Origin: an uncultured Planctomycetota bacterium
GTDB taxonomy: Bacteria; Planctomycetota; Planctomycetia; Isosphaerales; Isosphaeraceae
Assembly (NCBI GenBank): GCA_963845755.1
Contig: CAWJTV010000002.1
Coordinates: forward strand, 9,394-73,393
Direction of reading: 5' to 3'
DNA length: 64,000 nucleotides
How positions within the stretch are numbered: position 1 is the stretch's first letter; each line of letters opens with the position of its first letter. The position numbers and the translations under genes are program-made. The notes beneath the pieces are model-generated. The model saw nothing but the letters and a program-made list of their open reading frames with translations, was not told where the DNA came from and ran no database searches. Shown here piece by piece: positions 4,090-60,064 of the stretch.

Positions 4090-4126
<37 letters not shown>

Positions 4127-5083: not shown

Positions 5084-5093
5084 AAGCTAGCCC

Positions 5094-7002: not shown

Positions 7003-8741
7003 GGGTGGAAGACGCGGTTCGTTTTTCTGACGAGTTACGCGGCTTCCCCAGTCTTCCTGGCTTTGTAGCTGCGGAACGGGCTGCTGGGCCGCTCCTTGAG
7101 GTGGCGGTCCAGGCGGCCATCTTCGGAAAGGAAGGCCGCACGGAGTTGGAGGATCGCTTCGGCACCGGCCTCGCTCCAGAACTTCTCCGACCCCTTCACC
7201 CGGCGGTTGAATATCTTCACCGTCGACTCCACGTGGCTGGTCGTCCACGGGAGGCCCTCGCGACGATAGCGCGGATAGTCCATCCGCTCCCGGTTGTCTT
7301 CCAGGTAGCCCAGCACCCGCGCGACGATCCTCCGGGGGTCGTCGTCGGCTAGCCTTTCCAGCGGGCACCCGCACAAGGCGATCTGGGTATCACACCAGGT
7401 GCGAAGCTCCGCGATCACCCGATCGACCCGCCCGTTCCAGCAGGCCTCCGCCCAGGCCTGGAATGACTCCCAGCGGCCCTCGGTGTCGGCGACCATGACC
7501 CGGGCCGCCGTGAAGAGGTGGGCCAGGGCGTGGAGGAAGTTGACGATCGCCACGAAGGTCGGGAAAGAGCGGCGGTGCAGCCCCCAGATCCAGGCCGAGC
7601 CGTCCCCCAAGAACGCCCGGGCGGCGGCCGCGGCGAAGTTCCGCCGTCGGGCCTCGGCGGCGACCATCGGCCCGAAGCGATCGACCGGGGCGGTCGTGGC
7701 CACGTAGGTGCGCACCGATAGCTCCGGCGTACCGCGCGGCTCGGCGGCCTCGGCGACGGCCGGGATCGGCAGCACGGCGGGCTCCTGGATCTCGGGGGCC
7801 GGCGGGCCCATCGGTCCGGTCCCGCCGATGGCCCCGATGACCTTCTCGACGTAGGCCCGATCGCGGAAACAGGCGGGCAATTCCGGCTCGGGGTCGCACT
7901 CGGAGACGACAGGGGCCATCGTCGCCAGGATCGCGATCTTGTCCTCGTGCCAGGCGGCCTGGTGGGCTCCCGGCCCCTGGCCCGCGCCGCGGATCTGGAG
8001 CCGGCCGCCATCGACCTCGACGACCGCCAGGGCTGGCCGTGTCGCGACGCGCGGCTCGAGCGTGCCGGCCTGGAAGCGGTCCACCGGCTCATCCCGCTGG
8101 GACCGCAACTGCTCGCCGAGTTCGCGGGCGATGCGGTCGAGTTGCCGGCCGCTGATGTCCACCTCGGCCAATTCGGCGACGGCCTCGGCTGCCTCGCGGA
8201 AGGAGGGCTCGCGGGTGGCGGAACGGACGATCTTGCGGACTACCGAGGGGCTGTAGTCATGGGACGTCAGCCGTGCGCCGGGCGCGAGGGAAAAAAATCC
8301 CGGCGGCAGGCCGGGCAGTGGCACTGGGGCTCGGCGTAGGTGACCGCGCCGCCCCAGAAGTCGATGGCCCGCGGCTCGCGCTGTACGGCGCAAGGCCGCT
8401 GACACGTCGGGCAGGGTTGCTCGGGCCCCAGCAGCGCGGCCTTCCGCTCCAGCAGATCGGCGATGGTGCCCCGAGCGACGGCGCGGGCGGCGGTGATGGC
8501 CATCTGCTCGATGTCGTCGGCGTCGAGATCCAACTCGGGCCCGACCTCATCGTGGACTGCGCCGGGCCACGACTTTCCCCCACCCTTCGGCGAGCCGCTC
8601 GACGCCGTCTCGATCCATCGATGGTGACTTCTGGAAAGGCATCGGAGGTCCCTCCTTGGACTTCGGGTGATAGACAATCTGGGAAACTCACCTTGACAGC
8701 TTACCAGGGATCGAACGCCGCGCGAACCGCGTCTTCCACCC
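7003..8741 (-). mobile_element. Complete ISKra4-like insertion sequence (1739 bp)
   Basis: 19-bp perfect TIR GGGTGGAAGACGCGGTTCG (7003-7021 / 8723-8741); 9-bp TSD TCTCGCCCT (6994-7002 / 8742-8750). Confidence 0.92.
7035..8642 (-). CDS. ISKra4-family DDE transposase (split over frames; T7 slippery run at 8291-8297)
   Basis: CPTC..CPACRRDFFP, EVDGG, LGDGSAWIW, TSHVESTVK..RVKG motifs; AAGGAGG RBS before ATG at 8642. Confidence 0.85.
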
Positions 8742-8768
8742 TCTCGCCCTGATCCCGCCGCTCCCCTC

Positions 8769-8797
8769 TTGGCCGGTAGGATGCCAGCCGTTAGAAT
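8769..8797 (+). promoter_or_regulatory. Putative island-supplied sigma70 promoter for the intact tRNA-Gly
   Basis: TTGGCC-N17-TAGAAT, same -10 and spacing as 3994-4022. Confidence 0.55.
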
Positions 8798-8817
8798 CGA
8801 TTTGAGCTCGAAAGACG

Positions 8818-8840
8818 GTGGCAACAGGTGTGGCAACCAA
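8818..8840 (+). repeat. GTGGCAAC repeats, arm-type-site-like (right end)
   Basis: GTGGCAACA plus GGTGTGGCAACCAA; the latter is identical to 4322-4335. Confidence 0.75.
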
Positions 8841-8892
8841 GCCGAGAAAAGCATCTGTGCATTTGACGTAAGTCCTTACAGATTAAGCACTT

Positions 8893-8964
<72 letters not shown>

Positions 8965-9084
8965 CTCGACATAACTCCTGCCGAAACCTCAACTTGAGGT
9001 TACCTATCCCGGTCGGATAGTGCGGCGCCAGACCCGCCGGAATGCAGAATAGTTCTGCATTCCCCAGCGACATGAGGTATTGGC

Positions 9085-10379
9085 GTGGCACGCACCCGTC
9101 GGGGAACTCCCCCCTCCTACCGCCGTCACTCTTCCGGTCAGGCCTGCGTCACCGTCCGCGATGGCCAGCGGACGACGCCGCGAGATCCTGCTTGGTAAGT
9201 GGGATTCGCCCGAGTCGAAGGCCGAGTACGCACGGATCATCGACGAACTGGCCGCCCACCAGGGCCGGCTCATGGAACAACAGAAGGACCGGGCCGCCTC
9301 CAGCGACCTCACGGTCAATGCCCTGGTCCTTGCCTTCTGGAAGCACGCCGAGCAGCATTACGGCCAGCCCAGGGAGAAGTCCGCCACGAGCGAGCTGCTC
9401 AACCTGCGCCACGCCTTACATCCACTCAGGGCGCTGTATGGCCACCTCCGGGCCTCCGAGTTTGGCCCGGTCGCCCTCCGGGCCGATCCGCGAGAAGATG
9501 ATCGAGGCCGGCCTGAGCCGGACGACCATCAACGCTCGGATCAACCGGATCCGCCGGGTTTTTCGGTGGGCGGTCTCGGTCGAGCTGATCTCGGCGCCGG
9601 TCCTCCAGGCCCTGGAGACGGTTCCCGGGCTCCAGCGTGGCCGGTCGAATGCGAAGGAAACCGGCAGGGGTCAAGCCGGTCCCGATCGATCGCGTCGAGG
9701 CGACATTGCCCCACCTCAATCCCGTCGTCGCCGCCATGGTCCGGGTCCAGCTCCTGACCGGCTGCCGGGCCGAGGAAGTCATGATCATGCGTGGCTGCGA
9801 CCTGACGCCGGGCGAGCCGAACTGGGAGTATCGCCCGGCCTGGCACAAGACCGCCTGGCGGGGCAAGGACCGCGTCATCATCGTGGGGCCGAAGGCCCAG
9901 GAGATCCTCAGGCCATTCCTCAAGGCCGATCCGCAGGCGTACCTCTTCGACCCGCGCGACGTGGTCGAGGCCCACCATGCGGAGCGGGCCCGGAACGCGG
10001 AAGTCGAAGCCCACGCCCTCGGAGGTCGCCAGGCGGTCCAAGGACCGACCGGGGCAGGGTCACGCCGATCACTACGACCGGCGGACCTACCGCCAGGCCG
10101 TCATCCGGGCCTGCAATCGGGCCTTCCCCCACCCTCAACTGTCGAAGATCAAGCCGAAGAAGCTGACGGCCGATCAGCGGCTCGACCTCAAGGAATGGCG
10201 GCGGAAGCAGCGGTGGTCGCCCTTGCAGCTCCGGCATACGGCCGCGACGACGATCCGGTCACGGTTTGGCCTGGAGGCGTCGCAGGTCGTCCTGGGCCAC
10301 GCAAAGGCCGACGTGACGCAGATCTACGCGGAGACGGGACCTGGCCAAGGCACATGCAGTCATGGCCGAGATCGGTTGA
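9085..10379 (+). CDS. int: Tyrosine recombinase/integrase (several apparent indels)
   Basis: Joined frames give PSYRRHSSGQA N-terminus, TGCRAEE, LQLRHT, VLGH, TQIYAE catalytic residues. Confidence 0.88.
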
Positions 10380-10587
10380 GTTGCCTGCGACATCGGAGAT
10401 CTGGCTCAATGCAATCTGGCGGTCGGAGCACACGGTTCCGGATCACCTTGGACGAGGAAAAATCGACTGCCACGCGATTCGTAGCATTGCGACGCAGATT
10501 GTAGCACCCCTTATTCGGAGGACGCGCGGTGTCGTCCTCTGCACGACGCGCTAAGGCGTCGTGAAGTCCCAGGATCGATGAAGGGGG

Positions 10588-12199
10588 GTGACGATGGTCG
10601 GCCTGGAAGGCGAATTGCCTGGCGGCGTAAGGGGTTGTAAGGGGTCTCACCAGGAGAGAGACGACGAACGCACGCCGAGGATCCTCGTGTGGAGGATCGA
10701 GCGGGGATCCCGGTGGAACTTCCGGCGACTCGGCCGGCGACTGTCGCGCCACGAAGACCTTTTTCGCGACGGCAGCAGGGGCCTCGGCCTGATCCAGGTG
10801 CTCGACGATGGAAAGACACGCCGGATCACGAGGGCGGCGGAACTGGCCCCACTCATCGCCGATCGCATCCCGATGCGTGTCGAGAAAGACGGCAAGGTCA
10901 AGTCCGAGATGCCCGGACGCCGCGATCCTGAACGCCGCCCTCCGGAGCGAGGTCTTCCTGGGCTGTTTCCGGCCGATTGACGGGATCATCCAGCGATCGA
11001 CCTACTTCGAGGATTTCACGCCGGCCCAGCCCGGCTACCACGATCGGGGAGCGGGCGGTCGGATCCTCCACGTAGGTCCTGCCCCCGACGTGGTCGGATC
11101 GCTCGAGACGATCAACCAGTTCCTCGATGTCATGGATTTCGCGACGAATGCCGATCGGACGAACACCGTTGCAGCGGCCCTGACGGTCCTCCTGCGGAAT
11201 CACTGGCCCGGCGAGAAGCCGATCGTGGTCATCACGGCGACGAGGAGTCACGCCGGCAAGGGGACGATCGCCGAGATGATCCGCGGGTGCACGGACAAGG
11301 CGGATATCCCCTACCAGAACGTGGACTGGCCGATGCAGTATCAGTTCCAGCGACAGGTCCGGATGAATCCCGACCTCAGCGTCGTCCTGTTCGACAACGT
11401 GCGACTGGACAGCGCCGGTGGACGGGGTAGGTTCATCCGCTCAGCTTTCATTGAGAGTTTCGTAATGAATCCGGAGCTCATCCTTGCATCGCCGGGCGCC
11501 GGGGATCCAATTGCGATGGTCAACCGGTTCGTGGCACTCCTGAACACCAATGATGGGAGCCTGAGCGAGGACCTCCACAACCGATCCCTGCCGATTCATC
11601 TGTCGCCCCGTGGGAGCATCCATGATCGCAAGTCGTCCATAGGTAACCCGAAGCTCGAATTCCTCCCCCAGAATCGGGATCGCATCGAGGCCGAACTCCG
11701 TGGCATGATCGAGCGGTGGCGACTGGCCGGGATGCCGCGGGACGAGACGGCCAATCATCCCATGACGCCTTGGGCTCGGACGGTCGGAGGCACCCTGATG
11801 GTCAACGGTTTCGCGGACTTCCTCGGCAACCGACAGCGTCGCAGGACGGCGGACAATCCGCTACACGAGGCCCTGGGCATCCTGGGGGCGTCCGCTGTGG
11901 GCAGCCCACTCCGGCCCTCGGAATGGGCTGCGAAGGCCGTCGAGCTGGGTCTCGCGAGGACCTTGTTCCTGGCCACGGAGCGAGACACCGAGAAGGGTCG
12001 AGAGCGGGCCATCGGCGTCACCCTGAGCCGATATCTCGAAGAGACGTTCGACGTACCGACCGAGACACAGGACCTCCGCCTGCGGCTGTCGGGCGGTAGC
12101 CGTCGCTGGACCCACGGTAGGAACCCGCATGTTCGCTATGTCTTTAGCCCGCTTGACGGGAACGAATCAGATACCAGTGTCAGAGAGTGCTCGTCCTGA
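10588..12199 (+). CDS. P-loop ATPase, SF3-helicase-like (frameshift near 10910)
   Basis: Walker A-like TRSHAGKGT, Walker B VVLFDN, motif C-like LLNTN, arginine-finger-like DLHNR. Confidence 0.6.
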
Positions 12200-12848
12200 G
12201 GGGAGGTCGCTGGAGACTGCCGATTCCGGGACAGCGCCGGCTCTGGAGGGCTCACCGGGCGGCGGTCGGGTGAGCCCCTCCCATCTTCCAAGCGAGCGAT
12301 TCGGTATCTCCGGACTTCGGTCGGCTCCGCTTGTTCGTTGTTCGAGAGTTGAGATCCGAACGACTCAACGGAGGAATCCCGGGCCGCAGGTCGCCCGTCG
12401 ATTTCGAAGAAGGCGCAGGGTGTCTACATGATCGAACTACGAGACTGTCCGTTCAATAGCCTTTGTCCGACCCGGTGATCCGCCTACCGGATAGTGTTCA
12501 TTGATTCATTGACGAAATCAATCGCCATCTCTCTATCTAACGGTATTGCACAAGTCTTCGACATCGGAAATGGCGACGAGGCAGACCAAGGGCTCATCGC
12601 GAGAGTTCCTTTGAATCCCTCCGCGAGGTATCGCAGCTCCATCCAAGCACCTATCCTAACGACATCTCGACTTCGGCACTGCCGGGTATCGCATCATCGC
12701 GAGCCATAACCTGACTCCCGATGCACGGCTACCTCCAATGCAGCCCTCAAACCATCGCCGAACAGCGGGTACTTGCAACGGCCGTTCGCATCTATATAAT
12801 CCTGTTCGTCCCTCCCGGATCTGCTGTCGGCGTCGTGGAACAATTGGC

Positions 12849-14471
12849 ATGAGCGAGTTCTTCAATCCATCCCGCGATCAAAAGGCCGTGGCGGCTTATT
12901 TCCTGGGATACCGGAGTCGTACACTATGGATATGGCATGAATTATTCTGGACTGGTTACTTCATTGATGTAAAGACCATCGACTGTGACTCCGGACTCGA
13001 GGACGGTCCATGGCTCGCGGCTGAGGAGATCGATCGGGCGCGGATCGTCTGTGGGAATGCCATAGCTCCGCACAATTACGTCGACATCCTAGACATTCTT
13101 CATTCGTTTCAACTTCTTCCGGAGAGCACGATCGAATCCTGGTGGAAGATGGATCCGAGTCAGCAAAGACTCCTCTCACAGTCAGATCCCCCGTACAAAG
13201 AGAAGTGGGAGAGGCTTCAAAATCTAGTCGAAACAGCGTTCGAATCCGAGAACATACTCACTCGCTATTGTCGGGTCGGCCTGGCTATTGGCGATTACGA
13301 GCTGGCCATGGAAAGAATTCCGGACTTACCTAAATCCATTGATCAAAATACTAACATGCCATGCTTGGCGGAGGCCGCGAAGGGGCTTCCGGCCGACGTG
13401 CTTCGAGACATGCCATTGCTTAGTAGGATCGTCGAACTGGAGCCGGTTTGGATCGCGGAGGGGCCGCAGACCTTCTTCGTTGCACTATTCAATGAACTAG
13501 ACAACATCAGGGGAGAGGTTCCGCGAGGGCTGGAACGATTCCCCCTCCAGTTCACTCTCTTACAGGCTCTCCAAGCAGAGATCTGTTCTGTCCTTGCAGG
13601 CACGCATGTGGAAGAGAATGGGGGAATGCCTCCGAAACAGAGACCGCCCACAGGACCCACCGGCAAAAGAGAGGCATCGACGAATCCCGAGGATTATGAA
13701 TTCGCATTTTGCCTTCATCAGGACCAGTGGCTTGTCGTCTATAGCTCTTCCGCGGGCAAGGAAAAAGGTCATTTCCCTATCAGAAAATCGTTTAATGGAT
13801 TCGCAATCATTAATTTCTTAATTAAAAATCAAGGGCAAGAGCAAGGGTTCTCTCCTGGGGAGATTGTCGAGGCCCTCGATCCGGGTCCCGATAGCTCGAC
13901 AAGGCGACGGAACGAAATGATCGCAAGCGAAATCGGAGGCAAGCGCCGAGACTGGTCGAAATTGAAGGTATTTGATCGCACAGGAATTCGTAATATAATC
14001 AACGCGCTGCGACAACTCCAGGAGGGATATCGGGAATATCTACAAAACCCGTCAGAGAACACGGCGATCGACCATGAGAAAGACTGCATAGAGTTACTTC
14101 AATGTATTCGAGGATCCTTGACGTATGGGACTCATACAAAGGTAGCCATTATCGATGAACTGCTACAATCGCCACTGTTAGAGGCGGATTTCTCGCGTCT
14201 GAACGAGATCGGTCCCGATGATCTCAAAGATCTCAACGAGGGGAAGAATCCTGTGGGGTCGGTGAGGAGCAGGGTGGGAAAAGCGATCACGGACGCGATC
14301 GATCGCATCGCTAAGAAAAGCATGCGCGAGACAGCGAAATATTTGGAATCTACAATTGTGAATCCAAACGGATCTTCTGGCGTTTCCTATGTTCCAGTTG
14401 GAAACGCCCCTCCGAAGTGGGTACTCGATCTTAAGGTCTCCGGGGGATCGGAGGACGTGCAACAAGTGTAA
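12849..14471 (+). CDS. Hypothetical protein, lower GC, C-terminal helical regulator-like domain
   Basis: 540-aa uninterrupted ORF; C-terminal VRSRVGKAITDAIDRI..YLESTI..SYVP resembles tails of ATPase-regulators. Confidence 0.65.
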   Translation: MSEFFNPSRDQKAVAAYFLGYRSRTLWIWHELFWTGYFIDVKTIDCDSGLEDGPWLAAEEIDRARIVCGNAIAPHNYVDILDILHSFQLLPESTIESWWKMDPSQQRLLSQSDPPYKEKWERLQNLVETAFESENILTRYCRVGLAIGDYELAMERIPDLPKSIDQNTNMPCLAEAAKGLPADVLRDMPLLSRIVELEPVWIAEGPQTFFVALFNELDNIRGEVPRGLERFPLQFTLLQALQAEICSVLAGTHVEENGGMPPKQRPPTGPTGKREASTNPEDYEFAFCLHQDQWLVVYSSSAGKEKGHFPIRKSFNGFAIINFLIKNQGQEQGFSPGEIVEALDPGPDSSTRRRNEMIASEIGGKRRDWSKLKVFDRTGIRNIINALRQLQEGYREYLQNPSENTAIDHEKDCIELLQCIRGSLTYGTHTKVAIIDELLQSPLLEADFSRLNEIGPDDLKDLNEGKNPVGSVRSRVGKAITDAIDRIAKKSMRETAKYLESTIVNPNGSSGVSYVPVGNAPPKWVLDLKVSGGSEDVQQV

Positions 14472-15444
14472 CGGGGGCCAAGCGCTCTCCCGAGACATTT
14501 TGACGTCCGCAGGAGTGAGCATCTTTCCTTGCAATCGAGAGGGTGGACACAGCACCCCCATATCGCACGCGGAGTCACCCTAGGTCGCCCTAACTGAACG
14601 GACGCGCAAGTCCCTGTCTGCGCGGACGTCCGTGTGGTTCTGTGGCATTCGCGGTGTGCGAGCTCACGCCGCGGCATAGATCACATCCGGTATCGCCACG
14701 ACATACCCCCACGACGTCTTCGCTCCCCCGAACCGGCGCGGATTCGCCCGACCTATCATCATGTTGTCTCCCTGACCCTCGGTAACGTCGCCCATACCGT
14801 CGCCGTCCCCCCCTTGTCGCAGCCGGCGCGAGCCGGGCCGCCTTGGAAGGTTCCACATCTCCGCCAAACTCCGTTACACCAAGACGCTATCAAGGAAGGT
14901 AACAAAGCTACCCAGAATGTCGCACCGTGCTTGAGAGGAAGATCGTGGCGACGGGGGCCATCGAAAACTGGGACTGGACTAAAGCGGGTAGTACGAGCCT
15001 CACGAACAGGATTTCGGCAATTACCCGGCCAAATCATCGAGGGTAGCAAAGTGAGCCGAGAAGTTGCGCCTATTCCATAGACGGAGGTCGCGGCGATGGC
15101 CGCCGCCGCGAAGCAGGGCAAGTCAACGATCCGCAAGAGAGAGAGTTTTCGATTGCAGAGTTCCGTGGCGAGTCGTCCAGTTAATGGTGGAGGCGATGAC
15201 GGTCACCGCCACGGGAAGCACCAACTGAACCTTCGGGAATATCCTCGCCACACCTTGCAGGAACTTTGCAATGAGATGTCGATCAGCAATGTGGCGATGG
15301 TGACGTCCACAACCTCGAGGGAGGGTAAATGATCCAGCAGCTCCCATCGCCATCTCCCGAAAAAAAATTTTCCGAGGGAATTTCGGCTCTGGGATGTCGA
15401 TTCGTAGGGGCGATGATGACGGCCGCAACCATGAAGGAGGGGAT

Positions 15445-15675
15445 ATGAGCCAACAGCTCACAGTGACTGATGCCGCAGACGAACTCTCGGCCCAGGCCGG
15501 CGAGATGATCCGGCCTCGCGACATCAGTGACCTTCTCTACAAGAGGATCCTGGACGTCAATCGATGCCCGATTGTCGGGGATCGCCGCATGATTCCGCGC
15601 GACTACCTGCCCACGGTGCTGGAGGTCCTCCGGATGCGCGGGCTGATCACCCCCGGCGAGGAGGAGCCCAGTTGA
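15445..15675 (+). CDS. Small HTH / excisionase-like protein
   Basis: AAGGAGG RBS; LTVTDAADEL..RCPIVGDRRMIP winged-helix-like pattern; 76 aa. Confidence 0.65.
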   Translation: MSQQLTVTDAADELSAQAGEMIRPRDISDLLYKRILDVNRCPIVGDRRMIPRDYLPTVLEVLRMRGLITPGEEEPS

Positions 15676-15974
15676 TTGATCCATTACTCGAAGAGCTGAT
15701 TACGCCCAAGGAGGCGACGCGGTACTACCCGCGGAACTCGAAGGGGAGGAAGGTCCACGTGGCAAAAGTTTATCGCGACATGCAAGTCGGCCAGCGAGGG
15801 CTGAAACTTGAGTCGCTCCGTACGCCCCGTCTCGCGACCTCGAGACAAGCGATTGCGAGATTCTTCTCGCGCCTCAGCCTCGGGGCCGCACAGGAGTCGC
15901 CGACGTTGACCGAACGGGCTCGGTCTCGAAATGAAGAGACGATCGAGCGCGAACTCGATCGTCTCGGGATCTGA
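15672..15974 (+). CDS. DUF1580-family (excisionase-like wHTH) protein
   Basis: ELITPKEA..KVHVAKVYR..GLKLES..TSRQAIARF..ELDRLGI pattern; start overlaps the previous stop. Confidence 0.7.
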   Translation: MIDPLLEELITPKEATRYYPRNSKGRKVHVAKVYRDMQVGQRGLKLESLRTPRLATSRQAIARFFSRLSLGAAQESPTLTERARSRNEETIERELDRLGI

Positions 15975-16021
15975 TGTCAAGACGGTCGCCACCCCGCGAA
16001 GAGTGAACCGACCAACCTAAC

Positions 16022-16291
16022 ATGGAGATCAACGACTTGAACAGTCCAATTGTACACATGCAGGTCAACTCTGACAAGGTCCTCCGCATCCAGATCATGT
16101 CGCTACTTCGTCGGACCGGAACCATCGTCCGGGCCTGGCACGACGCAAGGACGTCGTCGGCTGAAGACGAGGACGACCTCCACGATACTCCCCACGTCGA
16201 CAATCCATTGCTCGACATCATGACCCCCGCCCAGGTCAGCTCCTGGTACCGCAGCCAGATGAGCGTCTTCGAGCCGAGGGCGGCAGGTTGA
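16022..16291 (+). CDS. Hypothetical protein
   Basis: 89-aa ORF co-oriented within the element gene run. Confidence 0.35.
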   Translation: MEINDLNSPIVHMQVNSDKVLRIQIMSLLRRTGTIVRAWHDARTSSAEDEDDLHDTPHVDNPLLDIMTPAQVSSWYRSQMSVFEPRAAG

Positions 16292-16480
16292 GTCACCGCA
16301 ATTGGTCCGATCATGGGCTGCCGGGACGGCCCCTGGGCAGGTTCCGGCAGCTCGTTGTAAATGTGTCGCCTGACAGACCGCATGGCCGTTGCATTCGCTT
16401 TCGGGTGGGGCGATCTCAATGCCTACCTTGGGCAAGATCACGACGTTCGACCATCAAGACGGAGCATCAAGGAGCATACC

Positions 16481-17326
16481 ATGACGCGGCCGCTCATTTG
16501 TCGGGATCGTCTGACGCCGGCTGAACAGCGCGAGCTCGAGCGTTGCGCGCACTGGGGCATCAGCCTCCAGACGCTCGACGAGGACAGCAGAGACATGGTC
16601 AACGGCGTCGAGATCCCGATCCTCGGTCAGGATGTGGAGCTCGCGCTGGAGTATTCGATCAGAGCAGCCAGCCGGATGCTCGAGCATCCCGATCCCGCCC
16701 AGCGATGGCAACACGACGTAGCCTTTTTCGCTGTCGGCCGGCTGCTTGCCATCGTCCGCATCGGTCCCGACGGCCCAGTCGTGACGAGGTTCGACCCGAT
16801 CACCCTGCCATCGATCGTGACCGGCATCCCGGGATCGCGACGAGGCCGAAGGCCCTGCATCTACTGGGTTGACGGATCACTCGAGGCGACCAGTTACGGC
16901 GTGGGTACACCGATCGCCGGCCGGGATCCGGCCATCCTGATCGATGAGCTGGTCGGGGCAATGTGCGAGAAGTTGCGTCATCCTGACGCGGACCATAGAC
17001 AGACCGAGGACGTGATAATCACGCATCGTGGACAGATCCTCGCGGCGATCCGGTCGACGGCCTCGGGCCCCGTCGTCACGCGGTTCGATCAGACCGACTC
17101 GTCGGCCGGCAGCCTGGCCGATCCGCCAGATGGCCCCGAACCGTCCACTGTCCCCTTTGGTGCCGGCGGCCAGGACCGGATGCGCCGGTCCACCGTCGGA
17201 CGATCCCCACCTTCCGACGATGAGGAACAGCGCATTGAACCCAACACCATTACGCGCCACCGGGCCGGAAGCTCGGCCTCGCGGACATCGAAACCGCCGG
17301 TAGTGGACTGCCCTCCCGTCTCGTGA
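16481..17326 (+). CDS. Hypothetical protein with duplicated ~80-aa domain (3' end uncertain)
   Basis: AAGGAG RBS; HPD...DV..G.LA.R...GPVVTRFD occurs twice. Confidence 0.6.
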   Translation: MTRPLICRDRLTPAEQRELERCAHWGISLQTLDEDSRDMVNGVEIPILGQDVELALEYSIRAASRMLEHPDPAQRWQHDVAFFAVGRLLAIVRIGPDGPVVTRFDPITLPSIVTGIPGSRRGRRPCIYWVDGSLEATSYGVGTPIAGRDPAILIDELVGAMCEKLRHPDADHRQTEDVIITHRGQILAAIRSTASGPVVTRFDQTDSSAGSLADPPDGPEPSTVPFGAGGQDRMRRSTVGRSPPSDDEEQRIEPNTITRHRAGSSASRTSKPPVVDCPPVS

Positions 17327-18132
17327 TCTTCGGGACGGAAGGCATCGGCAAATCTAGTTTCGGGGCCGCGGCCCCGAAACCCGTCTTTCTGATGACTCAG
17401 AACGAGACGGGGCTCTTGACGCTACTGGACGCCGGCCGCATCCCGCCGACGCCCCATTTTCCGGAGGTCACGACATGGTCCGAGTTGCTCGACGCCATCG
17501 CCGTGCTGAACGACCAGACGCACGACTACCGGACGCTGGTCATCGACACCGTGAACGGGGCCGAGCGACTCTGTCATCAGCATGTCTGCAGGCGAGACTA
17601 CGGAGGTCGCTGGGGTCGGGATGGATTCACGTCGTTCAACCAGGGCTACGACGTGGCCCTGGCGGACTGGCAGGAGTTCCTCCATCGAGTCGATCGTCTG
17701 AGGGCCGTCAAGCGGATGGGCATCATCACGCTGGCCCACAGCCGGATCGCGACGTACCGGAACCCCGAGGGTGCCGACTACGACCGGTTCGTGCCCGACC
17801 TCCATGCCAAGACCTGGGCGCTGACACACAAGTGGGCCGACGCCGTCCTTTTTCTTAACTACGAGACCTTCGTCGACTCCGACCGCGCCGACCTCAAGGG
17901 CAAGGGCAAGGGCGGGAGCCGACGCAAGATCTACACGCAGCGGACCGCGGCGTTCGACGCGAAGAATCGCCATGGTCTGCCCGCAGAAATCGACGGCGGC
18001 CGCAGTGCCGCCGAGGCCTGGCTCCACCTGGCCACCGCGATGAAAACGGCCAAAATGGCCACCCCGACAACCTCCGATTCCGCGACCGTCGCGGACGTCC
18101 TCATCAACGACTCGAACCCTGTTACGGAGTGA
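17323..18132 (+). CDS. AAA_24 / Sak4-like recombination ATPase (true start probably near 17220)
   Basis: GTEGIGKS Walker A, TLVIDT Walker B, LAHS, WADAVLF, AKNRHGLP motifs. Confidence 0.85.
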   Translation: MIFGTEGIGKSSFGAAAPKPVFLMTQNETGLLTLLDAGRIPPTPHFPEVTTWSELLDAIAVLNDQTHDYRTLVIDTVNGAERLCHQHVCRRDYGGRWGRDGFTSFNQGYDVALADWQEFLHRVDRLRAVKRMGIITLAHSRIATYRNPEGADYDRFVPDLHAKTWALTHKWADAVLFLNYETFVDSDRADLKGKGKGGSRRKIYTQRTAAFDAKNRHGLPAEIDGGRSAAEAWLHLATAMKTAKMATPTTSDSATVADVLINDSNPVTE

Positions 18133-18650
18133 TCCCTTCCATGTCGATCGACCCTGGCAAGTACCGCGGCCGAATCCGCGACTACGGCGTGGAGCAGTCC
18201 CAGGCCGGCCAGCAGCATCCGACGGTGTTCCTCAACTTCGAGATCGTCGGTCAATACGACCCGACGACCGGCGAACTCCTGTCCTGTCCGACGGCCAGCC
18301 GAACCTATCGCAAGGCGATCACGCCGAAGACGATCGGCTGGCTGCTCGCCGACCTCAAGGCGATCGGCTACGACAAGCCGGGCCTGGAGTACCTCGATCC
18401 CGAGACTCCTGGTGCCATCGACCTCTTCGACCACGAAATCGATGTAGTCTGCGAGCACGATACCTACGAGGGCCAGACTCGCGAGCGGTGGTCGATCCAT
18501 CGCGAGCGCACCCGCGAGCGGGTCCGCCGCGACGTCCTGGCCAGCCTGGACGCCCAGTACAGCGACCAGATCCGGCGAGTCCTGGGCGCCGACGCGGGTG
18601 ATGTGAACCCGCCGCCGGTCGCTGAGATCAACAACGACAATCCCATCTGA
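18129..18650 (+). CDS. Putative single-stranded DNA-binding protein (DUF669-like)
   Basis: PGKYRGRI N-terminus, beta-rich core, acidic tail ending NDNPI; overlaps the Sak4-like gene stop. Confidence 0.6.
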   Translation: MIPSMSIDPGKYRGRIRDYGVEQSQAGQQHPTVFLNFEIVGQYDPTTGELLSCPTASRTYRKAITPKTIGWLLADLKAIGYDKPGLEYLDPETPGAIDLFDHEIDVVCEHDTYEGQTRERWSIHRERTRERVRRDVLASLDAQYSDQIRRVLGADAGDVNPPPVAEINNDNPI

Positions 18651-18675
18651 TCCTACTCATCGATGCAGATAGGTA

Positions 18676-18708
18676 ATGCCAGGCCGGGCGACTCGTCCGG
18701 CCTGGCAT
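18676..18708. other. 15-bp GC-rich hairpin between the SSB-like and primase genes
   Basis: ATGCCAGGCCGGGCG-ACT-CGTCCGGCCTGGCAT; no U-tract. Confidence 0.55.
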
Positions 18709-18727
18709 CACTTGTCTGCACAACTCC

Positions 18728-21408
18728 TTGGAGCATTCTCCCTTGAGACGCCCAGCAAAGTACGTGACGCTCGTCAACAAGTTGAAGGAGCGTGACGAGG
18801 TTCGGTGGACCGGTAAAGAGTGGCGAACTCGCTGCCCAGCCCATGACGATTACGGACCGAGCCTTTGCGTCAAGCTCTTGCCCGACGACTCCAATACGCT
18901 GATCCACTGCAGCGCCGGCTGCAAGACTGAGTCCATCGTCGCCGAGGTCGGCCTGACGATGGCCTGCCTCTTCCATGACGACGACGAGCTCGTTGAGGTC
19001 GATGAGGACTTCGAGATCGTCAACCAGGCGCCGCGAGCCCCCAGAACCGTCGAACCGCCTCCGGAGACCAAATCTCGGGGCGACGGGCCCGACCGCGTTA
19101 CGGAGCTCGCCAAGCCGGCGGATGCCGACCTGTGCGACCAGGTCTATGGCAAGCTGCTGGCTGGCCTGAGCCTCGCCGATGCCCATCGCCAGGATCTCCA
19201 GCGGCGTGGGCTGAGCGACGAACAGATCGGCCGCCGCTGCTATCGAAGCCTCGGAAAGTACGAGATCCGCCAGGCCATGGGCCGGCTCAAGCAGGAGCTC
19301 GATAACGCGAGCCTGGAGCGCGTGCCTGGGGTCCGGATCCGCAACGGTCGATTGCAGTTCTCCGACCGCGAGGGCCTGCTGGTGCCGGTCCGCGATGCCC
19401 AGAACCGGATCGTCGCCCTGAAGCTCCGCGCCGACGAGTCGAGCGGCGGGGCCAAGTACACCTGGATCTCCAGCTCCGATCAGGGCGGCCCCTCGCCCGG
19501 CTCGCCGCCGCACGTCCCGCTCGGCATGCCGGCCCGCGCCGAGGTCGTCCGGGTGACCGAGGGCGAGCTGAAGGCCGACATCGCCTTCGCGCGCTCGGGC
19601 ATGCCGACGATCGGCGTCCCGGGCGTCGATCAGTGGAAGTCGTGTCTCCCGATCCTCGAGGCCATGGGCGCGAGGATCGTCCACGTCGCGTTCGACATGG
19701 ACGCCCAGACCAAGCCGGGCGTGGCGGCGGCCCTCGCCGCGTGCGTGAGGGAGCTGATCCGTCTGAAGTACGAGGTCCGCCTCGAGACCTGGGAACAGGG
19801 AGATGGCAAGGGGATCGACGACCTGCTCGCCGCCGGCAAGCAGCCCGCGATCGTGACCGGCCAGGAGGTCCTCGCCAGGATCGAGGAGATCGGCACCTCG
19901 GCCGCGGGCCAGCCCGACGACGATGCCGACGACGGGTGGTTTCCTCAGGATCCCGCCGACGAGGTCGCCCCCTTCCCGGTTGATTGCCTGCCGGCCCCCC
20001 TTCGCCAGTTCGCTACCGAGGCGGCCCGGGCTCTGCAATGTCCGGTCAACTTCCTCGGCGTGACCATGCTGGCCGTGGCATCGGCGGCCATCGGCAACAC
20101 CAGGCGGCTCAGGATTCGACGCGGCTACGAGGAGGGCGCGCGAATCTACGCCGCCATCGTGGCGGCGGCCGGCTCGGTCAAGTCGCCGGCCCTGCGCCTG
20201 GTCTGTGACCCGGTCTACGAGCAGCAGAGGCGCCTGATGGCGGGCTACCACGAGGCTCGTCTGCGGTACGTGGCCGACATGGAGGGGTTCGAGCACCGGC
20301 GGCGTCTTGCGTTGAAAACCAAGGACCCGTTGCCGCCGGGATTCGAAAGGCCGACCAAGCCGGTAATGGGCCACGTGTACGTCGAGAATGCGACCGTCGA
20401 ATCGCTGGCCCAGGTCCTGTCCCAGGCTCCGCGGGTGTCCTGATGATCCGCGACGAGCTGACCGGCTGGGTGCTGTCGCTCAACCAGTACCGGTCCGGGC
20501 GAGGGGCGGACCGGCAAGTCTTCCTCTCGTTCTGGTCGGGCGAGCCGACGAAGATCGACCGCAAGGGCGAGCTCGACGAGCCGCTGATCGTCACCGACCC
20601 GTTCGTCTCCGTCATCGGCTGCATCCCCCCGGCCAAGCTCGCCGCCCTCGACGACGGCAATGACGGCGAGGACGGCTTCATGCATCGGATCCTCTCCTCG
20701 TTTCCCCGGCCGGTCAGGGGACGCTACTGGACCTGGGAGGGGATCAGGCCCGAGACCCGCAAGCTCTGGAGCAACGCCGTCGAGGCACTGTACGGCCTGG
20801 AGATGGATCGGGACGAGATGGACTTCCCGACGTCGCGGATTCTCGACCTGGCGCCCGAGGCCTGCCAGCCATGGGAGGCGTGGTACAACGAACACGTCGC
20901 GGAGACCGAGCAACCCGATTTTCCGGACTACCTCGTCGGCCCGTGGTCCAAGCTCGTGGCCTATGCGGCGCGTCTGGCCCTGATCGTCCACCTGCTGCGG
21001 GCCGCCTGCGGGGAGCGGCTCCGCGATGAGGTGGACACCGAGAGCCTCGATCGGGCCTTCCGGCTCATCGCCTACTTCAAGTCCCACGCCCGGGCCGTCT
21101 ACGCCCACCTGCGGCTCCCGAAGAAGCTGGGCCCGATCCAGAAGGTGATCTCCTGGATCCGCGGGCACAACAAGACCGAGTTCCACACGAGCGAACTGGC
21201 CCGCAGCCAGGTGGCCGGCATCCGGAGCCGGAGCGAGGCCGAGGCGATCATGAAGGAGCTGGCCGACCTGGGCTATGGCCGGCTGGAGGAACGCCGAGCG
21301 AAGAACAACCGGAAGGTGACCTGGTTCGTCACCCGGCCGGTCCAGTTGGGTCGAGTTGGGTCCAGTTGGGCAGAGCCACCCAACTCGCCGAATTCCGCAA
21401 GTGCCTGA
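18728..21408 (+). CDS. Primase-helicase: Zn finger + TOPRIM (DUF3854) + DUF3987/YfjI ATPase + wHTH (frameshift near 20435)
   Basis: CPAHDD..CSAGC; VTEGELKAD, AFDMD, KGIDD; AGSVKSP, RDEL, DGFMHR. Confidence 0.85.
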
Positions 21409-22005
21409 ATTCCAATGGTTTAGAATTGACACCTCGGTCCAGTTGGGAAATTGGGTCGCTCCAGAAGGAAAGGAAGATGGGGAGCTACCGGGACGGCCTT
21501 ACCGGCCCCCTCCTGGGTATGAAGGGTATATACCTGGGGAATAAGGTATATATAAGGGGTTTTGAGATAATATAAAGTATTATTTATATTATAAATAATA
21601 TAATATACTATCTCTACCAGATTACACCCCTGCAGGCGGTCTACAAGTAGGGAACGAACTGCACGCTTTTTCCCTGCAATCGCCCAATTTCCCAACTGGA
21701 CAAGGAGACAAGACGCAAGTCATTGAATTTATTGGACTTACGTAGTTCACTCCAGTTGGGTAGGCAGCCCAACTGGACCCAACTTGCCCGATTGGCGCCC
21801 GGAACCGCCGACCAGGGCGGACGATGCCTGGTTACCCCCTGCAGGCGGCGTACCGCCCCGGAACTGGACTCTTTTCCCCCTGGAATTACCCAATTTCCCA
21901 ACTGGACACGGATTTACTGTGTAAACCATTGGCTCAATTGTAGTTGCGGGAATCGGTCCGGTTGGGTGGGTAGCCCAACTGGACCCGATTCGCCTGACTG
22001 GCAAC
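21341..22005. other. Putative replication origin (iterons around an AT-rich core)
   Basis: Multiple TCCAGTTGGG/CCCAACTGGA copies; 19-bp CCCAATTTCCCAACTGGAC at 21683 and 21889 and inverted at 21437; very AT-rich 21525-21612. Confidence 0.75.
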
Positions 22006-22094
22006 CGGGACCGGCGACCGGGTCGGACGTGGCCTGTGGTCCTGGCCGCGGGCGAGATCTATCCTGTCCCATATCATTCGACGAGGAAGCTATC

Positions 22095-24434
22095 GTGAGC
22101 ATCGCCACATCGACGAGGTGCATCGTGCCTATCGGGGATCGGGAGTTCCCCTTCGAGAAGCCATGGTCGGGCCGGACCCTTGCGAATCGCGGGTACCTGG
22201 CCTTCGACACCGAGACCGAGGTCCTCAAGGACAGCGACCGGCAAATCCCGCGGCTGGCCCTGGCCACCGTCTGTGCAGGCGACGAGGCGAGCGCCGTGAT
22301 CCACCCCGATCAGGTCGGCCGGTTCATCCTGGCCCATCCGCGGGCCCGCTATGTCATCCACAACGTCGCCTTCGATTTCTGGGTCGTCGACCACCACCTG
22401 CAGGAACGCGGCGAGGAGGAAGCCAGGAAGGCCTGGTGGGACGCGTGCGAGGGGAACCGGATGCACGACACGATGATCATGGGCCAGTTGATCGAACTGG
22501 CCCGCCAGGATGCCGATCCCAGGCCCCGCAGCCTGGCCGACATGGCGCGGGCCTACGCGCGCATGGAGATCAGCAAGGAGGATCCCTTCCGGATGCGGTT
22601 CGGCGAGCTCATCGGCGTTGACTGGGACCAGGTCGAGGACGGATTCTTCGACTACGCGATCAAGGACGCGATCGTCACTCTCCACGCCTTCAGGCCGATG
22701 CTGCTCGAGGCCCAGCGTCTGATGATGGAGCTCGGGGGCGAGGGAACGGCGCTGGCCGACGACGTGCTCGCGCGGCACGGGGCACTCTCGGAATCCATCC
22801 AGGTCAAGGGCGCGGTCGCCCTGGCCTGCATCGAGCGCCACGGCATGCACCTGGACCTCGATCGCGTCCGATCGGCCGAAACATCGCTCCGGGTCGGGCT
22901 CGAAGCCGCGGTGACCGGACTGCGTGCGATCTGCCCCGAGTTGTTCAAGACCAGCCGGGATCCGGCCACGGGCGAGACGGGCCTCCGCCGCACCCAGAAC
23001 GGCGTGCCTTCGATCTCGGAGGAGGTCTTGCAACGGCAGCTTCGCCGCGTGATCGACGAGATCCGCGAGGCGACCGGCCAGGAGCTCGAAATCCCTACGA
23101 CCGAGCGGACTGGCAAGCTCCAGAGTTCAAGCAAGGTCTGGGCCGAGCATGCCCATCGGCACCCGTTCCTCGAGAACTGGCTCGCGATGAAGGACCTGGC
23201 CAAGCTCTGCCAGTTCTTCTCCGCCCTGCGCGAGCCGGTCGTGCACCCGCGGTATCGCCACCTGCTCCGCACCGGCCGGACGGGCTGCAGCAGGCCGAAC
23301 GTCCAGCAGATCCCGCGTGATGACCAGTTCCGGCAGGCGTTCGTCCCGTCGCCTGGCCATTTCCTGCTGGCGGTCGACTTTTCCTTCATCGAGCTGCGGA
23401 CCCTCGCGGCCCATTGCCTGAAAGTATACGGCCGCTCCGAACTGGCGAACGTGATCAGGACCGGGCGAGACCCGCACGCCTACACGGCCGCCATGATCGT
23501 GGGCGTGCCGTTCGAGGAATTCCTCGGCTGGAAGGATGATGAGACCGTGATCGAACTCAACGGCAAGACGCAGGCGCGAAGGCACCATTTCAAAGAGGCC
23601 CGCCAGCTCGCCAAGCCGATCAACTTCGGCGTGCCCGGTGGACTGGGCGCCGCGAGCCTCGTCGCCTACGCCCGTCACACCTACAAGGTGGACATGACGC
23701 TCGAGCAGGCGGGCGCATTCCGGACCCGTCTGATCGAGGAGATCTACCCCGAGCTCAGGATCTATCTCGATGAGGACGGCATGTCGCTCGTGGCCCACAA
23801 TCTCGGCGTTCCGGTCGGCGAGGTCTGGAATGCCTTCGATCGTGAGGGTACGCGAGCCCCTTATATCCCCCTGGGGATCAGGAACATCGTCCGTGGCAGG
23901 ACCCTGAACTCAAAGGGTAGGCCATACAACCCCTCATATCCCAGCGGGGTGTGGAGAGGGTTGATCCGGCTGTGTCGCAACCCCGAGATCAAACCGCTCC
24001 TCGAACAGCGCCGTGGGAATGCGAAGCTCTGCAATCGCCTGTTCGGTAATGCGGTCGTCACGCTGACCGGCCGGATCCGCGGCGGGGTCAGCTACTCGCA
24101 GTGCCGCAACACGCCGTTCCAGGGCCTGGCCGCCGACGGGGCCAAGCTGGGCCTCTTCCGGCTCATCCGTGAGGGTTTTCGCGTGATCGCCTTCGTCCAT
24201 GACGAGGTCCTGATCGAGCTACCCGATGAGGGAGGGTTCGTGTCAAAGGCCGGGATCGATCAGATCGTCGAGATTCTCTGCTCGGAGATGCAGGCGGTCC
24301 TGGGATGCGACCTGCCGGTTGAAGTCGAGTACGCGCTTTCCACCTGCTGGTCAAAGGACGCAAAGTTGATCGAGGCGGATGGCAAGATCTATCCGTGGAG
24401 TCCGGAGACGACCGGGGCCGGAACCGCGTCCTGA
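22095..24434 (+). CDS. Family A DNA polymerase (3'-5' exonuclease + polymerase, no 5'-3' exonuclease)
   Basis: Exo FDTETE, HNVAFD, YAIKD; motif A VDFSFIELR, motif B RQLAKPINFG, motif C FVHDE; TGR..PNVQQIPR; GTG start with GAGGAAG RBS. Confidence 0.93.
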   Translation: MSIATSTRCIVPIGDREFPFEKPWSGRTLANRGYLAFDTETEVLKDSDRQIPRLALATVCAGDEASAVIHPDQVGRFILAHPRARYVIHNVAFDFWVVDHHLQERGEEEARKAWWDACEGNRMHDTMIMGQLIELARQDADPRPRSLADMARAYARMEISKEDPFRMRFGELIGVDWDQVEDGFFDYAIKDAIVTLHAFRPMLLEAQRLMMELGGEGTALADDVLARHGALSESIQVKGAVALACIERHGMHLDLDRVRSAETSLRVGLEAAVTGLRAICPELFKTSRDPATGETGLRRTQNGVPSISEEVLQRQLRRVIDEIREATGQELEIPTTERTGKLQSSSKVWAEHAHRHPFLENWLAMKDLAKLCQFFSALREPVVHPRYRHLLRTGRTGCSRPNVQQIPRDDQFRQAFVPSPGHFLLAVDFSFIELRTLAAHCLKVYGRSELANVIRTGRDPHAYTAAMIVGVPFEEFLGWKDDETVIELNGKTQARRHHFKEARQLAKPINFGVPGGLGAASLVAYARHTYKVDMTLEQAGAFRTRLIEEIYPELRIYLDEDGMSLVAHNLGVPVGEVWNAFDREGTRAPYIPLGIRNIVRGRTLNSKGRPYNPSYPSGVWRGLIRLCRNPEIKPLLEQRRGNAKLCNRLFGNAVVTLTGRIRGGVSYSQCRNTPFQGLAADGAKLGLFRLIREGFRVIAFVHDEVLIELPDEGGFVSKAGIDQIVEILCSEMQAVLGCDLPVEVEYALSTCWSKDAKLIEADGKIYPWSPETTGAGTAS

Positions 24435-25456: not shown

Positions 25457-25810
25457 TCGGATGGCGATCCCGATCCATTGCCCGACCTGGATCAGCCGAC
25501 CGGTCCGACGCTCGCCGCCCCGGCCGCGAGGAGGCCGCTGTCGCAGATCCTGAAGCCCCTGAAACTCGACTCCCTGACCGTCGCCGATGACCCGGATTTC
25601 CTCAAGCTGATCAAGAAGGAGAAGAACCTGCCCGCCTTCCTCAAGACGGGCTTGCCGACGCTCTACTGAAAGCGTGTACGAGGAGCCCTTGTCGGGTGGG
25701 TCGAAGGCCGTATCGCGGCGTGACGGCCCACACTACGAACTTCGAACTTCGACATCCTGACAGTGTCCTGCTGTCCGAACTTCCCGAGACGAAAGAGACA
25801 AGTGACCGCT

Positions 25811-60047: not shown

Positions 60048-60064
60048 TCGGCCCTGCCAGATGG

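Follow-up and report, generated by a model that had tools for sequence, protein, structure and literature searches.

A degraded tRNA-Gly-associated element with its own family A DNA polymerase in an Isosphaeraceae genome: a probable member of a planctomycete family of tRNA-integrating elements without particle genes

The stretch of DNA analyzed here, called the window throughout, comprises 64,000 nucleotides of an uncultured planctomycete of the family Isosphaeraceae, and corresponds to bases 9394-73393 of a 73-kb contig (C2) within a 14.27 Mb assembly of 49 contigs (64% GC, completeness 87.9%, contamination 3.3%). Downstream of a tRNA-Gly gene it contains a run of genes, all on the + strand, which includes the remains of a tyrosine integrase, an SF3-like ATPase, a Sak4-like annealase, a primase-helicase and a family A DNA polymerase (PolA), and which we read as an integrated element carrying a replication module of its own (Table 1). 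Genes were called by third-position GC (GC3), because spurious open reading frames (ORFs) are abundant at such a high GC content. Protein families were searched in Pfam and PHROGs, tRNAs with ARAGORN and defence families with PADLOC; the Pfam results for the window cover 21 + 32 ORFs. L-numbers denote relative loci, G001 a congeneric genome, G000 the source genome and C-numbers the contigs of the latter.

Table 1. Features of the tRNA-Gly-associated element and of its borders (window coordinates)
Feature	Position	Strand	Basis
tRNA-Gly(CCC), predicted integration target	8893..8965	+	ARAGORN, sole tRNA found; parallels in congener G001 and in L091
Left junction (attL side)	8966..8990	.	blastn and direct alignment of C2 with C44
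Tyrosine integrase pseudogene, at least 3 frame changes	9085..10379	+	tblastn, GC3 frame plot
SF3-like P-loop ATPase, frame-shifted	10684..12199	+	tblastn with 631-aa homologue L124:7615-9510
577-aa ORF in low-GC stretch (GC 0.52-0.57)	12738..14471	+	Composition
DUF1580-like helix-turn-helix (HTH) protein, candidate excision/regulatory factor	15564..15974	+	Pfam DUF1580, below cut-off
Two ORFs, 89 aa and 321 aa	16022..17326	+	GC3 support
AAA_24 / Sak4-like ssDNA-annealing ATPase, intact	17323..18132	+	Pfam E 4.3e-34; phrog_124 E 7.1e-37
SSB-like OB-fold protein, 173 aa	18129..18650	+	Position, structural model, C-terminal tail
Zn-ribbon / DUF3854 (TOPRIM-like) / DUF3987 primase-helicase, split	18728..21408	+	Pfam
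Origin-like intergenic region	21330..22040	.	Repeat finding, pattern count against shuffles, tandem repeats
PolA with 3'-5' exonuclease domain, open frame, 779 aa	22095..24434	+	Pfam, PHROGs
Weak attR candidate, not established	44395..44415	+	Agrees at 19 of 21 positions with the tRNA 3' end (15 nt) and the next 5 nt

The intact AAA_24 ATPase, 59% identical to its counterpart at L087:5688-6551, is immediately followed by the SSB-like gene. The product of the latter gave no match in the family scans, and comparison of its profile with PDB sequences returned nothing below E 0.25. Its structural model has a mean pLDDT of 74.2 and, among the Foldseek matches listed, nearly all are to PrgE or to single-stranded DNA (ssDNA)-binding proteins (SSBs), all of them weak (E 1e-3 to 5e-2, TM-score 0.2-0.44); its C-terminal tail has the form D-x-P-I/F. 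Homologues occupy the same position in L087, where they too follow AAA_24, and in L094, and are also present on the viral contigs L031 and L032. Conserved position, uniform though weak structural matches and the tail together suggest that this protein is SSB-like.

Six relatives (L087, L091, L092, L094, L096 and L104) encode the primase-helicase in one uninterrupted ORF of 840-933 aa. In the window it is split at 20441-20443, positions 1-143 of DUF3987 lying in ORF 18728-20443 and positions 148-363 in ORF 20443-21408. The break falls exactly where the residues 'APRG-LLM' are expected, the window having GGG where GGGG would hold the frame, i.e. a 1-nt loss at 20441. The homologue in L157 is split at another place, and L117 and L124 have only shorter ORFs.

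Primase-helicase and PolA are separated by a gap of 686 nt, in which repeats accumulate. The 11-mer GTCCAGTTGGG is matched, allowing one mismatch, 12 times in the window, against 1.18 matches expected window-wide, and none of 100 shuffles reached 12; ten of the twelve fall within 21340-21984, in both orientations, on either side of a palindrome rich in AT (21564-21614). The same region also contains a repeated unit of 164 nt (73%) and, by its repeats, looks like a replication origin. The PolA beyond it matches both DNA_pol_A and DNA_pol_A_exo1 in Pfam, and phrog_17 at E 8.8e-67. In an alignment of 34 sequences (A1) its exonuclease and polymerase motifs, which we take to be Exo I-III and polymerase A, B and C, show little or no variation. 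Translation probably starts at the GTG at 22095 rather than at a TTG at 21723, since the former fits the lengths of about 750-800 aa of many of the relatives listed. The SSB-like gene lies 3.4 kb upstream of PolA, with the primase-helicase in between.

The genes nearest to the tRNA are in a poorer state. No single ORF of the integrase region matches a Pfam family, and PHROGs gave only weak phrog_1 matches; the integrases of L087, L117, L091, L124 and L005 (intact) align by tblastn to four collinear segments (9173-9484, 9486-9662, 9655-9996 and 10016-10333) in frames 1, 2, 3 and 1, respectively, i.e. with at least three frame changes within 1.2 kb, and the GC3 frame plot is concordant. The ATPase, which has a Walker-A-like 'AGKGT' and weak PHROG matches to primases and polymerases, changes frame between 10911 and 10928, residues 121-198 of its L124 homologue aligning in one frame and residues 204-605 (46% identity) in another. 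The HTH gene matches DUF1580 at E 5.5e-4 and 19.9 bits, the cut-off being 24.4, with homology starting near 15669. Its homologues adjoin integrases in L124, L149 and L091, and the L091 copy matches DUF1580 at E 9.8e-10. The order in L124:18-9510, on an 11.9-kb contig of a metagenome-assembled genome (MAG), is primase-helicase, PolA, integrase, a 391-aa ORF, DUF1580-like gene and SF3-like ATPase; as all four are carried there, the combination of integrase, SF3-like ATPase, DUF1580 and PolA recurs elsewhere.

An initial annotation, made from the letters alone, had listed next to the tRNA-Gly a co-oriented tyrosine integrase, an SF3-like ATPase, two excisionase-like HTH genes, a Sak4-like AAA_24 with an SSB-like gene, a Zn-TOPRIM-DUF3987 primase-helicase, an iteron origin and an intact proofreading family A polymerase. 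AAA_24, SSB-like gene, iterons and polymerase are borne out. Integrase, ATPase and primase-helicase are where they were placed, with the domains assigned to the last of them, but none is an open gene; one of the HTH genes has the weak family support just described, the second has none.

The left border can be drawn by comparison with C44, which contains a paralogous copy of the upstream flank and of the tRNA, and which is near-identical to C2 up to about 8990, some 25 nt beyond the tRNA, where the two diverge. In G001, a tRNA-Gly 100% identical to that of the window precedes an integrase fragment of the same family, truncated by an insertion sequence (IS) after its first 130-165 residues, and in L091, a Schlesneria MAG, tRNA-Gly(CCC) is followed by an integrase, as in the window. 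Judged from these alignments, the predicted integration site and left end of the element are well supported.

PolA relatives are numerous, 593 at E <= 1e-3 among the candidates scored, and mostly metagenomic; many of these (P0033, P0053, P0057, P0070, P0096 and others) are fused to DNA adenine/cytosine methyltransferases or have a TubC_N-like N-terminus. Scans with the PolA alignment yielded 80 IMG/VR loci and 75 genome loci, and the relatives of the locus in the genome collection are almost all Planctomycetota. Among cultured phages and plasmids the best identity is about 26%, no place covers 80% of the query, and no named relative emerged. The nearest syntenic relative, L087 (Gemmataceae), features tRNA-Val, integrase, AAA_24, SSB-like gene, primase-helicase and PolA (52% identical), and none of its ORFs within 10 kb matches a virion family.

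In a FastTree phylogeny of 100 PolAs, which was rooted on the long branch of the host Pol I and for which supports are of the SH-like (Shimodaira-Hasegawa-like) type only, the window PolA groups with those of L087 and L094 (support 95). The elements bounded by attachment (att) repeats, described below, fall in a separate, genome-only clade of 19 rows, and viral contigs with terminase and portal genes in a third one; all three lie inside a clade of 67 rows (support 99). The host Pol I, 29% identical to the window PolA, stands far outside this clade, and the element polymerase is of a lineage distinct from it. It is very improbable that the module is a set of host genes, i.e. an extra proofreading polymerase, annealase and SSB retained for repair or defence. 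PolA, AAA_24 and the SSB-like gene do stay open while the integrase is broken at least three times, and a published reclassification of PolA describes, in its passages on this point, accessory chromosomal subfamilies (APEX) that coexist with Pol I; but the primase-helicase of the same module is broken, and PolA, matched at E <= 1e-30 in one of 60 related genomes and absent from the congener, is for this reason not conserved as a host gene.

The relatives also provide complete elements. Many planctomycete loci have a tRNA gene 1.5-4 kb past PolA and an integrase between the two, and at four such loci, all in Planctomycetota MAGs, a copy of the tRNA 3' end recurs 9.4-10.5 kb away as a direct repeat. 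The elements so delimited measure 10,035 bp (L088, repeat of 49 nt), 9,394 bp (L103, 18 nt), 9,577 bp (L107, 19 nt) and 10,477 bp (L119, 24 nt with 1 mismatch); L153 adds a fifth case, of 6.6 kb, with a 17-nt repeat and a degraded PolA. All four contain a PolA with exonuclease domain, an integrase and several small ORFs. Three of them also have a separate primase-helicase, with the domain combinations PriCT_2 + DUF3987, Prim-Pol + AAA_25 and Prim-Pol + DUF3987; the PolA domains of L103 belong to an ORF of 935 aa that gave no match to a primase family. L107 and L119 have an HTH gene and occur as tandem copies, and L107 encodes, at 4769-5200, a 143-aa small-terminase-like protein (Terminase_4 E 1.3e-3, phrog_83 E 9.2e-5), found in this one of the four. 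Units of 9.4-10.5 kb have no room for a virion module. Terminal overlaps indicative of circularity were found in none of 29 whole contigs tested.

Two further loci are mentioned for completeness. L213 has a 46-nt tRNA repeat 10.9 kb apart, but was rejected as a family member: its PolA is truncated, it encodes a BNR-repeat protein, and none of its scanned ORFs is an integrase. In L118, from a Pirellulaceae MAG, the order is PolA, integrase, tRNA-Arg, and an array of 26 tRNAs (L118:130-3901) lies about 6 kb upstream of PolA.

A second element is present in the source genome, on contig C17 (L005, G000:C17:54001-73888), where tRNA-Ala(TGC) is followed by an intact integrase, IS21 (IstB) fragments, a DUF3987 primase-helicase and a PolA 47-50% identical to that of the window, the last 95 residues or so of which are in another frame. 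This PolA has a TubC_N match. A 44-nt fragment of the same tRNA-Ala lies on C5 (G000:C5:822947-822990), beside Mrr and a partly fragmented BREX gene set; a link between this fragment and the C17 element is speculative.

No capsid, portal, terminase, tail, lysis, relaxase or type IV secretion system (T4SS) family was detected by Pfam and PHROGs in the scanned ORFs of the window or in the C17 element, in line with the initial annotation, which recognized no virion or conjugation gene. The hallmarks of a temperate prophage (large terminase, portal, major capsid, tail) are thus absent from the window and the upstream flank, the right end being undefined, and the relaxase expected of integrative conjugative or mobilizable elements, with or without T4SS or coupling protein, is absent from the Pfam results for the window ORFs. 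In the 9.4 kb upstream of the window, Pfam detected neither virion nor conjugation families. A tblastn search of the window with the terminase and portal clusters found on related viral contigs gave no match. Over the whole genome, as far as assembled, Phage_capsid (PF05065) and TerL_ATPase (PF03354) are unmatched, and Terminase_6N matches are confined to contigs C28, C37 and C11. L087, L094, L104 and L117 are likewise devoid of particle genes within 10 kb on either side (PHROGs). Terminase/portal clusters occur in 32 of 80 viral loci as opposed to one of 75 genome loci (L120, a Flavobacteriales contig), and integrase clusters show the reverse distribution, 37 of 75 genome loci and 5 of 80 viral ones. 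Within the two genome-only, or island, PolA clades, no terminase/portal cluster is found at any of the 28 loci.

These figures bear on the possibility that the locus is the remnant of a full temperate phage, of which integrase and early replication/recombination module are left, the virion genes having been deleted or lying beyond the contig end. We regard such an origin as unlikely, although several observations would fit it. The succession of primase-helicase and PolA recurs on IMG/VR contigs, with PolAs 33-39% identical, together with large terminase, portal, RecE/RecT and RusA genes; the SSB-like protein has its homologues on two viral contigs, and Sak4 and SSB are a typical phage pair; the pseudogenes, an IS of 1.74 kb beside the tRNA and a RAYT-like gene after PolA would fit decay, and the far end is unseen, the contig stopping in a repeat. 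On the other hand, no virion family appears over 55 kb downstream or 18 kb upstream, the nearest relatives are equally without them, the island clades contain neither terminase/portal clusters nor any IMG/VR contig, and four relatives are complete at about 10 kb. The initial annotation had itself proposed that head and tail modules in homologous loci, or just outside the window, would mark a truncated prophage; the island-clade loci have no terminase/portal cluster, and Pfam detected no virion family in the upstream flank.

We favour, on balance, the interpretation that the stretch starting near 8990 and reaching 24434 or beyond is the eroded copy of an element from a planctomycete family whose members integrate at tRNA genes, replicate on their own and lack particle genes. 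The existence in Planctomycetota of a family of tRNA-integrating elements with PolA and primase-helicase, and without detectable virion genes, is supported. The suggestion of a PolA-based self-synthesizing element or satellite family is partly supported, on account of the four att-bounded relatives and the island loci without terminase or portal, but not for the window copy as an intact, replisome-bearing element.

Several points weigh against this interpretation. No significant attR was found, either by exact 12-mers, blastn-short or Smith-Waterman alignment of the tRNA 3' region with window and genome; the candidate of Table 1 has a local alignment score of 31, against a 95th percentile of 30 and a maximum of 33 for 60 shuffled queries. 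The same type of repeat search found none for L087, L091, L157 and the C17 element either, so that the subtype with PolA far from the tRNA, to which these and the window belong, has no member with a defined far end, and C2 itself terminates, at 64000, in a repeat common to C7 and C8. As the right end lacks a significant attR, the size and cargo content of the window element are undefined. The large cargo of the initial annotation, i.e. the genes for an FG-GAP giant protein, Ig-like proteins, a kinase and TPR proteins identified by Pfam in the rest of the window, is consequently a candidate only. The hidden Markov model libraries cover planctomycete phages poorly, many flanking ORFs of the relatives are without any match, and the family scans took in part of the 75 genome loci; particle genes may have gone unrecognized in the subtype with PolA far from the tRNA. 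No helper-packaging gene (small terminase, capsid remodelling or other hijacking function) was detected in the window copy by Pfam and PHROGs, psu, delta and sid homologues included, and a satellite lifestyle draws on one of the four att-bounded relatives and on analogy. Finally, the assembly contains indel noise, so that some frameshifts could be errors or strain-specific, and a near-identical, low-depth soil-metagenome contig has one base fewer at 10919, a difference that would bring the ATPase back into frame.

This last point calls for a closer look at the frame breaks. C2 and C44 share 14.7 kb (window -7689..8990, C44:1-14918), either a segmental duplication or a strain bubble. The two copies are 99.1% identical and differ by 90 mismatches and 33 gap openings, of one or two bases each. 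The sequence is mostly housekeeping, the ratio of gaps to mismatches is abnormal, and the gaps are mostly single-base losses close to the C44 start, a pattern that points to local consensus errors in the assembly. The window element might accordingly be intact and mobile, its breaks being assembly errors or the variant of one strain, the more so as the primase-helicase is broken by a one-base loss in a G run and the soil contig would put the ATPase back in frame. We consider this improbable. The gaps end at window position 3919, and the 5 kb from 3920 to 8990, which adjoin the integrase, have none; ORFs of 8.4, 6.3, 2.3 and 2.1 kb run without interruption in the unique part of C2; random error is a poor explanation for three or more breaks in an integrase of 1.3 kb; and the C17 element is also damaged, by the frame break in its PolA and by IS21 fragments. 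Because of the gap-free adjoining 5 kb and the long uninterrupted ORFs, we take the decay of the integrase as real, the single-base breaks in ATPase and primase-helicase being less certain. The soil matches come from three runs of one study, each with a small share of the sequence in the form of Logan contigs, short low-depth pieces which do not usefully cover the integrase and primase break points; no RNA run was listed among the matches. With integrase, ATPase and primase-helicase all frame-broken, the window copy is probably immobile and most likely fixed in place.

In a working member of the family, the tyrosine integrase, perhaps aided by the DUF1580 HTH protein, would insert the element at, and excise it from, the 3' end of a tRNA gene. 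The circle would replicate from the iteron/AT-rich origin, which the primase-helicase may recognize, open and prime. The model for origin recognition by a primase-helicase is the alpha protein of P4, a fused primase-helicase with a nearby iteron-type ori, as in the window family. The proofreading PolA of the element would then extend the primers, and replication may well be autonomous; in the subtype of the window, SSB-like protein and Sak4-like annealase could assist, either by handling ssDNA or in recombination-dependent replication. The absence of particle genes, the size, the tandem integration at tRNAs and the one TerS-like gene suggest that spread from cell to cell most likely relies on the hijacked capsids of helper phages, i.e. 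on a satellite lifestyle. To our knowledge, the gene sets that define P4-like satellites, phage-inducible chromosomal islands (PICIs) and the related PICMIs include no DNA polymerase, and these satellites rely on that of the host.

By published descriptions (PMC10085698, PMC10803314), P4-like satellites, PICIs and PICMIs resemble the family in several respects: they measure 7-20 kb, lack a virion module, encode an integrase that targets a tRNA or another fixed site, and integrate in tandem or at hot spots. Of the features typical of the satellite classes, the window has a replication module of its own (split primase-helicase, iteron/AT-rich region and PolA) and lacks a full virion structural and lysis set, as judged with libraries which are poor for planctomycete phages. 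A helper-packaging gene or site was not detected, its nearest equivalent being the weak TerS-like gene of one att-bounded relative. An integrase with att repeats is found in L088, L103, L107 and L119, whereas the window integrase is frame-broken and has no significant attR.

The group COG0749 is taken by us to be that of Pol I and other family A polymerases. Virion-encapsidated integrative mobile elements (VEIMEs; Eppley et al. 2022, PMC9618062) are marine phage satellites, and some of those in module 6 are stated in the text to carry small terminases and DNA polymerase genes; COG0749 is listed for 117 VEIMEs, 78 of them in module 6 (Dataset S5), and for 40% of module 6 (Dataset S6). According to these parts of the paper, VEIMEs are, like the planctomycete family, small and integrative, with integrase and primase/helicase, no major capsid gene and, in some modules, small terminase and polymerase. 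They differ in having been seen as concatemers within marine virus particles, while the planctomycete family is known from genes alone, and in their hosts, which are marine plankton and not Planctomycetota: 'Planctomycet' does not occur in the main text of PMC9618062. Compared by description, and not by polymerase sequence, the window copy is further set apart by its AAA_24, SSB-like gene and SF3-like ATPase. The tycheposons of Prochlorococcus (bioRxiv 10.1101/2020.12.28.424599) share with the window a tyrosine recombinase at a tRNA site, frame-broken in the window, and a replication module, described as 'polymerases, primases, helicases', and have full and partial tRNA copies at their ends. 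They come in cargo-carrying and PICI-like forms, the former of which the window, with its replication module followed by large candidate cargo, would resemble; but they belong to another phylum, their description, where it deals with this module, states no family A polymerase hallmark, and the window cargo is not shown to lie inside the element.

Pipolins, casposons and polintons are described (PMC7385651, PMC11551731) as integrative elements, often repeat-flanked at tRNA genes, with a replicative polymerase of their own, and pipolins also as platforms for cargo and defence genes. Their polymerase is, by the same descriptions, of family B, primer-independent or protein-primed, whereas the window has a family A enzyme of the RNA-primed type and a separate primase-helicase; no family B polymerase was reported by Pfam for any scanned window ORF. 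A family A polymerase on a non-viral integrative element is found in the CcPol-MP-Cch2 operon of SCCmec and related elements of Bacillota, near an OB-fold ssDNA-binding partner and a helicase (PMC7581432, PMC10061031), an arrangement which recalls the window. CcPol, as described, retains little of the exonuclease domain and serves, with its partner, as a primase (PMC10201439); in contrast, the exonuclease motifs of the 779-aa window PolA are conserved, the primase-helicase is encoded separately, and the SSB-like gene does not adjoin PolA. In the 12 matching passages, of 18, considered here, the 2023 reclassification of PolA mentions Planctomycetota only for 'Hot Spring' PolAs fused to archaeo-eukaryotic primases (AEP).

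The general kind, a satellite-like island with a family A polymerase of its own, is therefore already on record, and the contrast drawn in the initial annotation with satellites that use the host polymerase was overstated, given the VEIMEs with COG0749, the tycheposons with polymerases and the SCCmec-type elements with CcPol. A literature search found no paper on an integrative element or satellite family with PolA in Planctomycetota, and the compact family is apparently undescribed for this phylum. We would tentatively go further, and entertain the view, somewhat less probable than not, that the 9.4-10.5 kb elements and the larger subtype of the window form a distinct, undescribed class: episomes that integrate at tRNAs, lack particle genes and bring the complete core of an RNA-primed replisome, namely an iteron origin, a primase-helicase and a proofreading polymerase of family A, in some cases with SSB and annealase. 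Such episomes would be the counterpart, with PolA, of the self-synthesizing elements that rely on PolB, would rank with the smallest replicons that have a family A replicase of their own, and would spread as satellites of planctomycete phages, their PolA lineages having co-diversified with the elements and not with phages.

The remaining genes of the left half are less informative. The 577-aa ORF has no match in Pfam, PHROGs or PADLOC, and sub-threshold matches only in the ESM Atlas; it is possibly a later insertion or cargo. The two ORFs between the HTH gene and AAA_24 match no family and no PDB sequence, and no PDB sequence is matched by the small ORFs at 16022-16291 and 15564-15974 either.

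Additional features were noted around the element. Three candidates for completing or extending its map were rejected: C44 as an empty site, since the DNA 3' of its tRNA-Gly, with epimerase, DJ-1, tyrosinase, LodA and glycosyltransferase genes, occurs nowhere else in the assembly and does not match C2, so that it provides no right end; G001 as a source of the right flank, its contig stopping in IS copies about 2.8 kb past the tRNA; and a second, tandem element inside the window, as tblastn matches of the integrase cluster are confined to 9000-10500. G001 has no syntenic match to window 9000-45000. On the other side of the tRNA, a 4.77-kb insertion separates a 37-nt copy of the tRNA-Gly 5' half (4090-4126) from the full tRNA (from 8893). 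It is absent from G001, where the tRNA directly follows the flank, and contains three minus-strand ORFs, one for a HEPN RiboL-PSP protein, and an IS, but no integrase; window 4090-8929 looks like a second, 5'-side insertion into the same tRNA-Gly gene. The IS (7003-8741, 1.74 kb) is bounded by terminal inverted repeats and by a target duplication of 9 bp, CTCGCCCTG; it is not found in the C44 copy, has at least 10 further copies in the genome at 99.4-99.8% identity, and contains a 456-aa ORF without Pfam or PHROG match.

Downstream of PolA, a minus-strand Y1-transposase ORF (25662-26322; IS200-like, possibly of the RAYT type) overlaps a 65-70-nt repeat, of which G001 has dozens of copies, some in regular REP-like arrays about 50-100 nt apart. 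A Ser/Thr kinase at 41476-42606 gives strong PADLOC matches to PD-T4-6 (best E 9.1e-52), which may merely reflect the common kinase domain. Window 44862-50138 is a multi-copy module including a DUF2997 gene, with copies at 94% on C47 and 86-89% on C5 and C6, and the sequence of window 55411-64000 recurs, at 98-99%, at the ends of C7 and C8.

The window itself is a cautionary case, being an eroded copy whose 'cargo' is not shown to belong to it. The family is of wider interest. Small integrative elements normally borrow the polymerase of the host, and a family of about 10 kb with both a proofreading PolA and a primase-helicase raises the question of why such elements pay for a replicase of their own. 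It also raises the question of which phages, if any, the family parasitizes, in a phylum with almost no cultured phages. Its members provide natural, compact modules of origin, primase-helicase and PolA, which could serve for reconstitution in vitro or for building replicons for Planctomycetota genetics.

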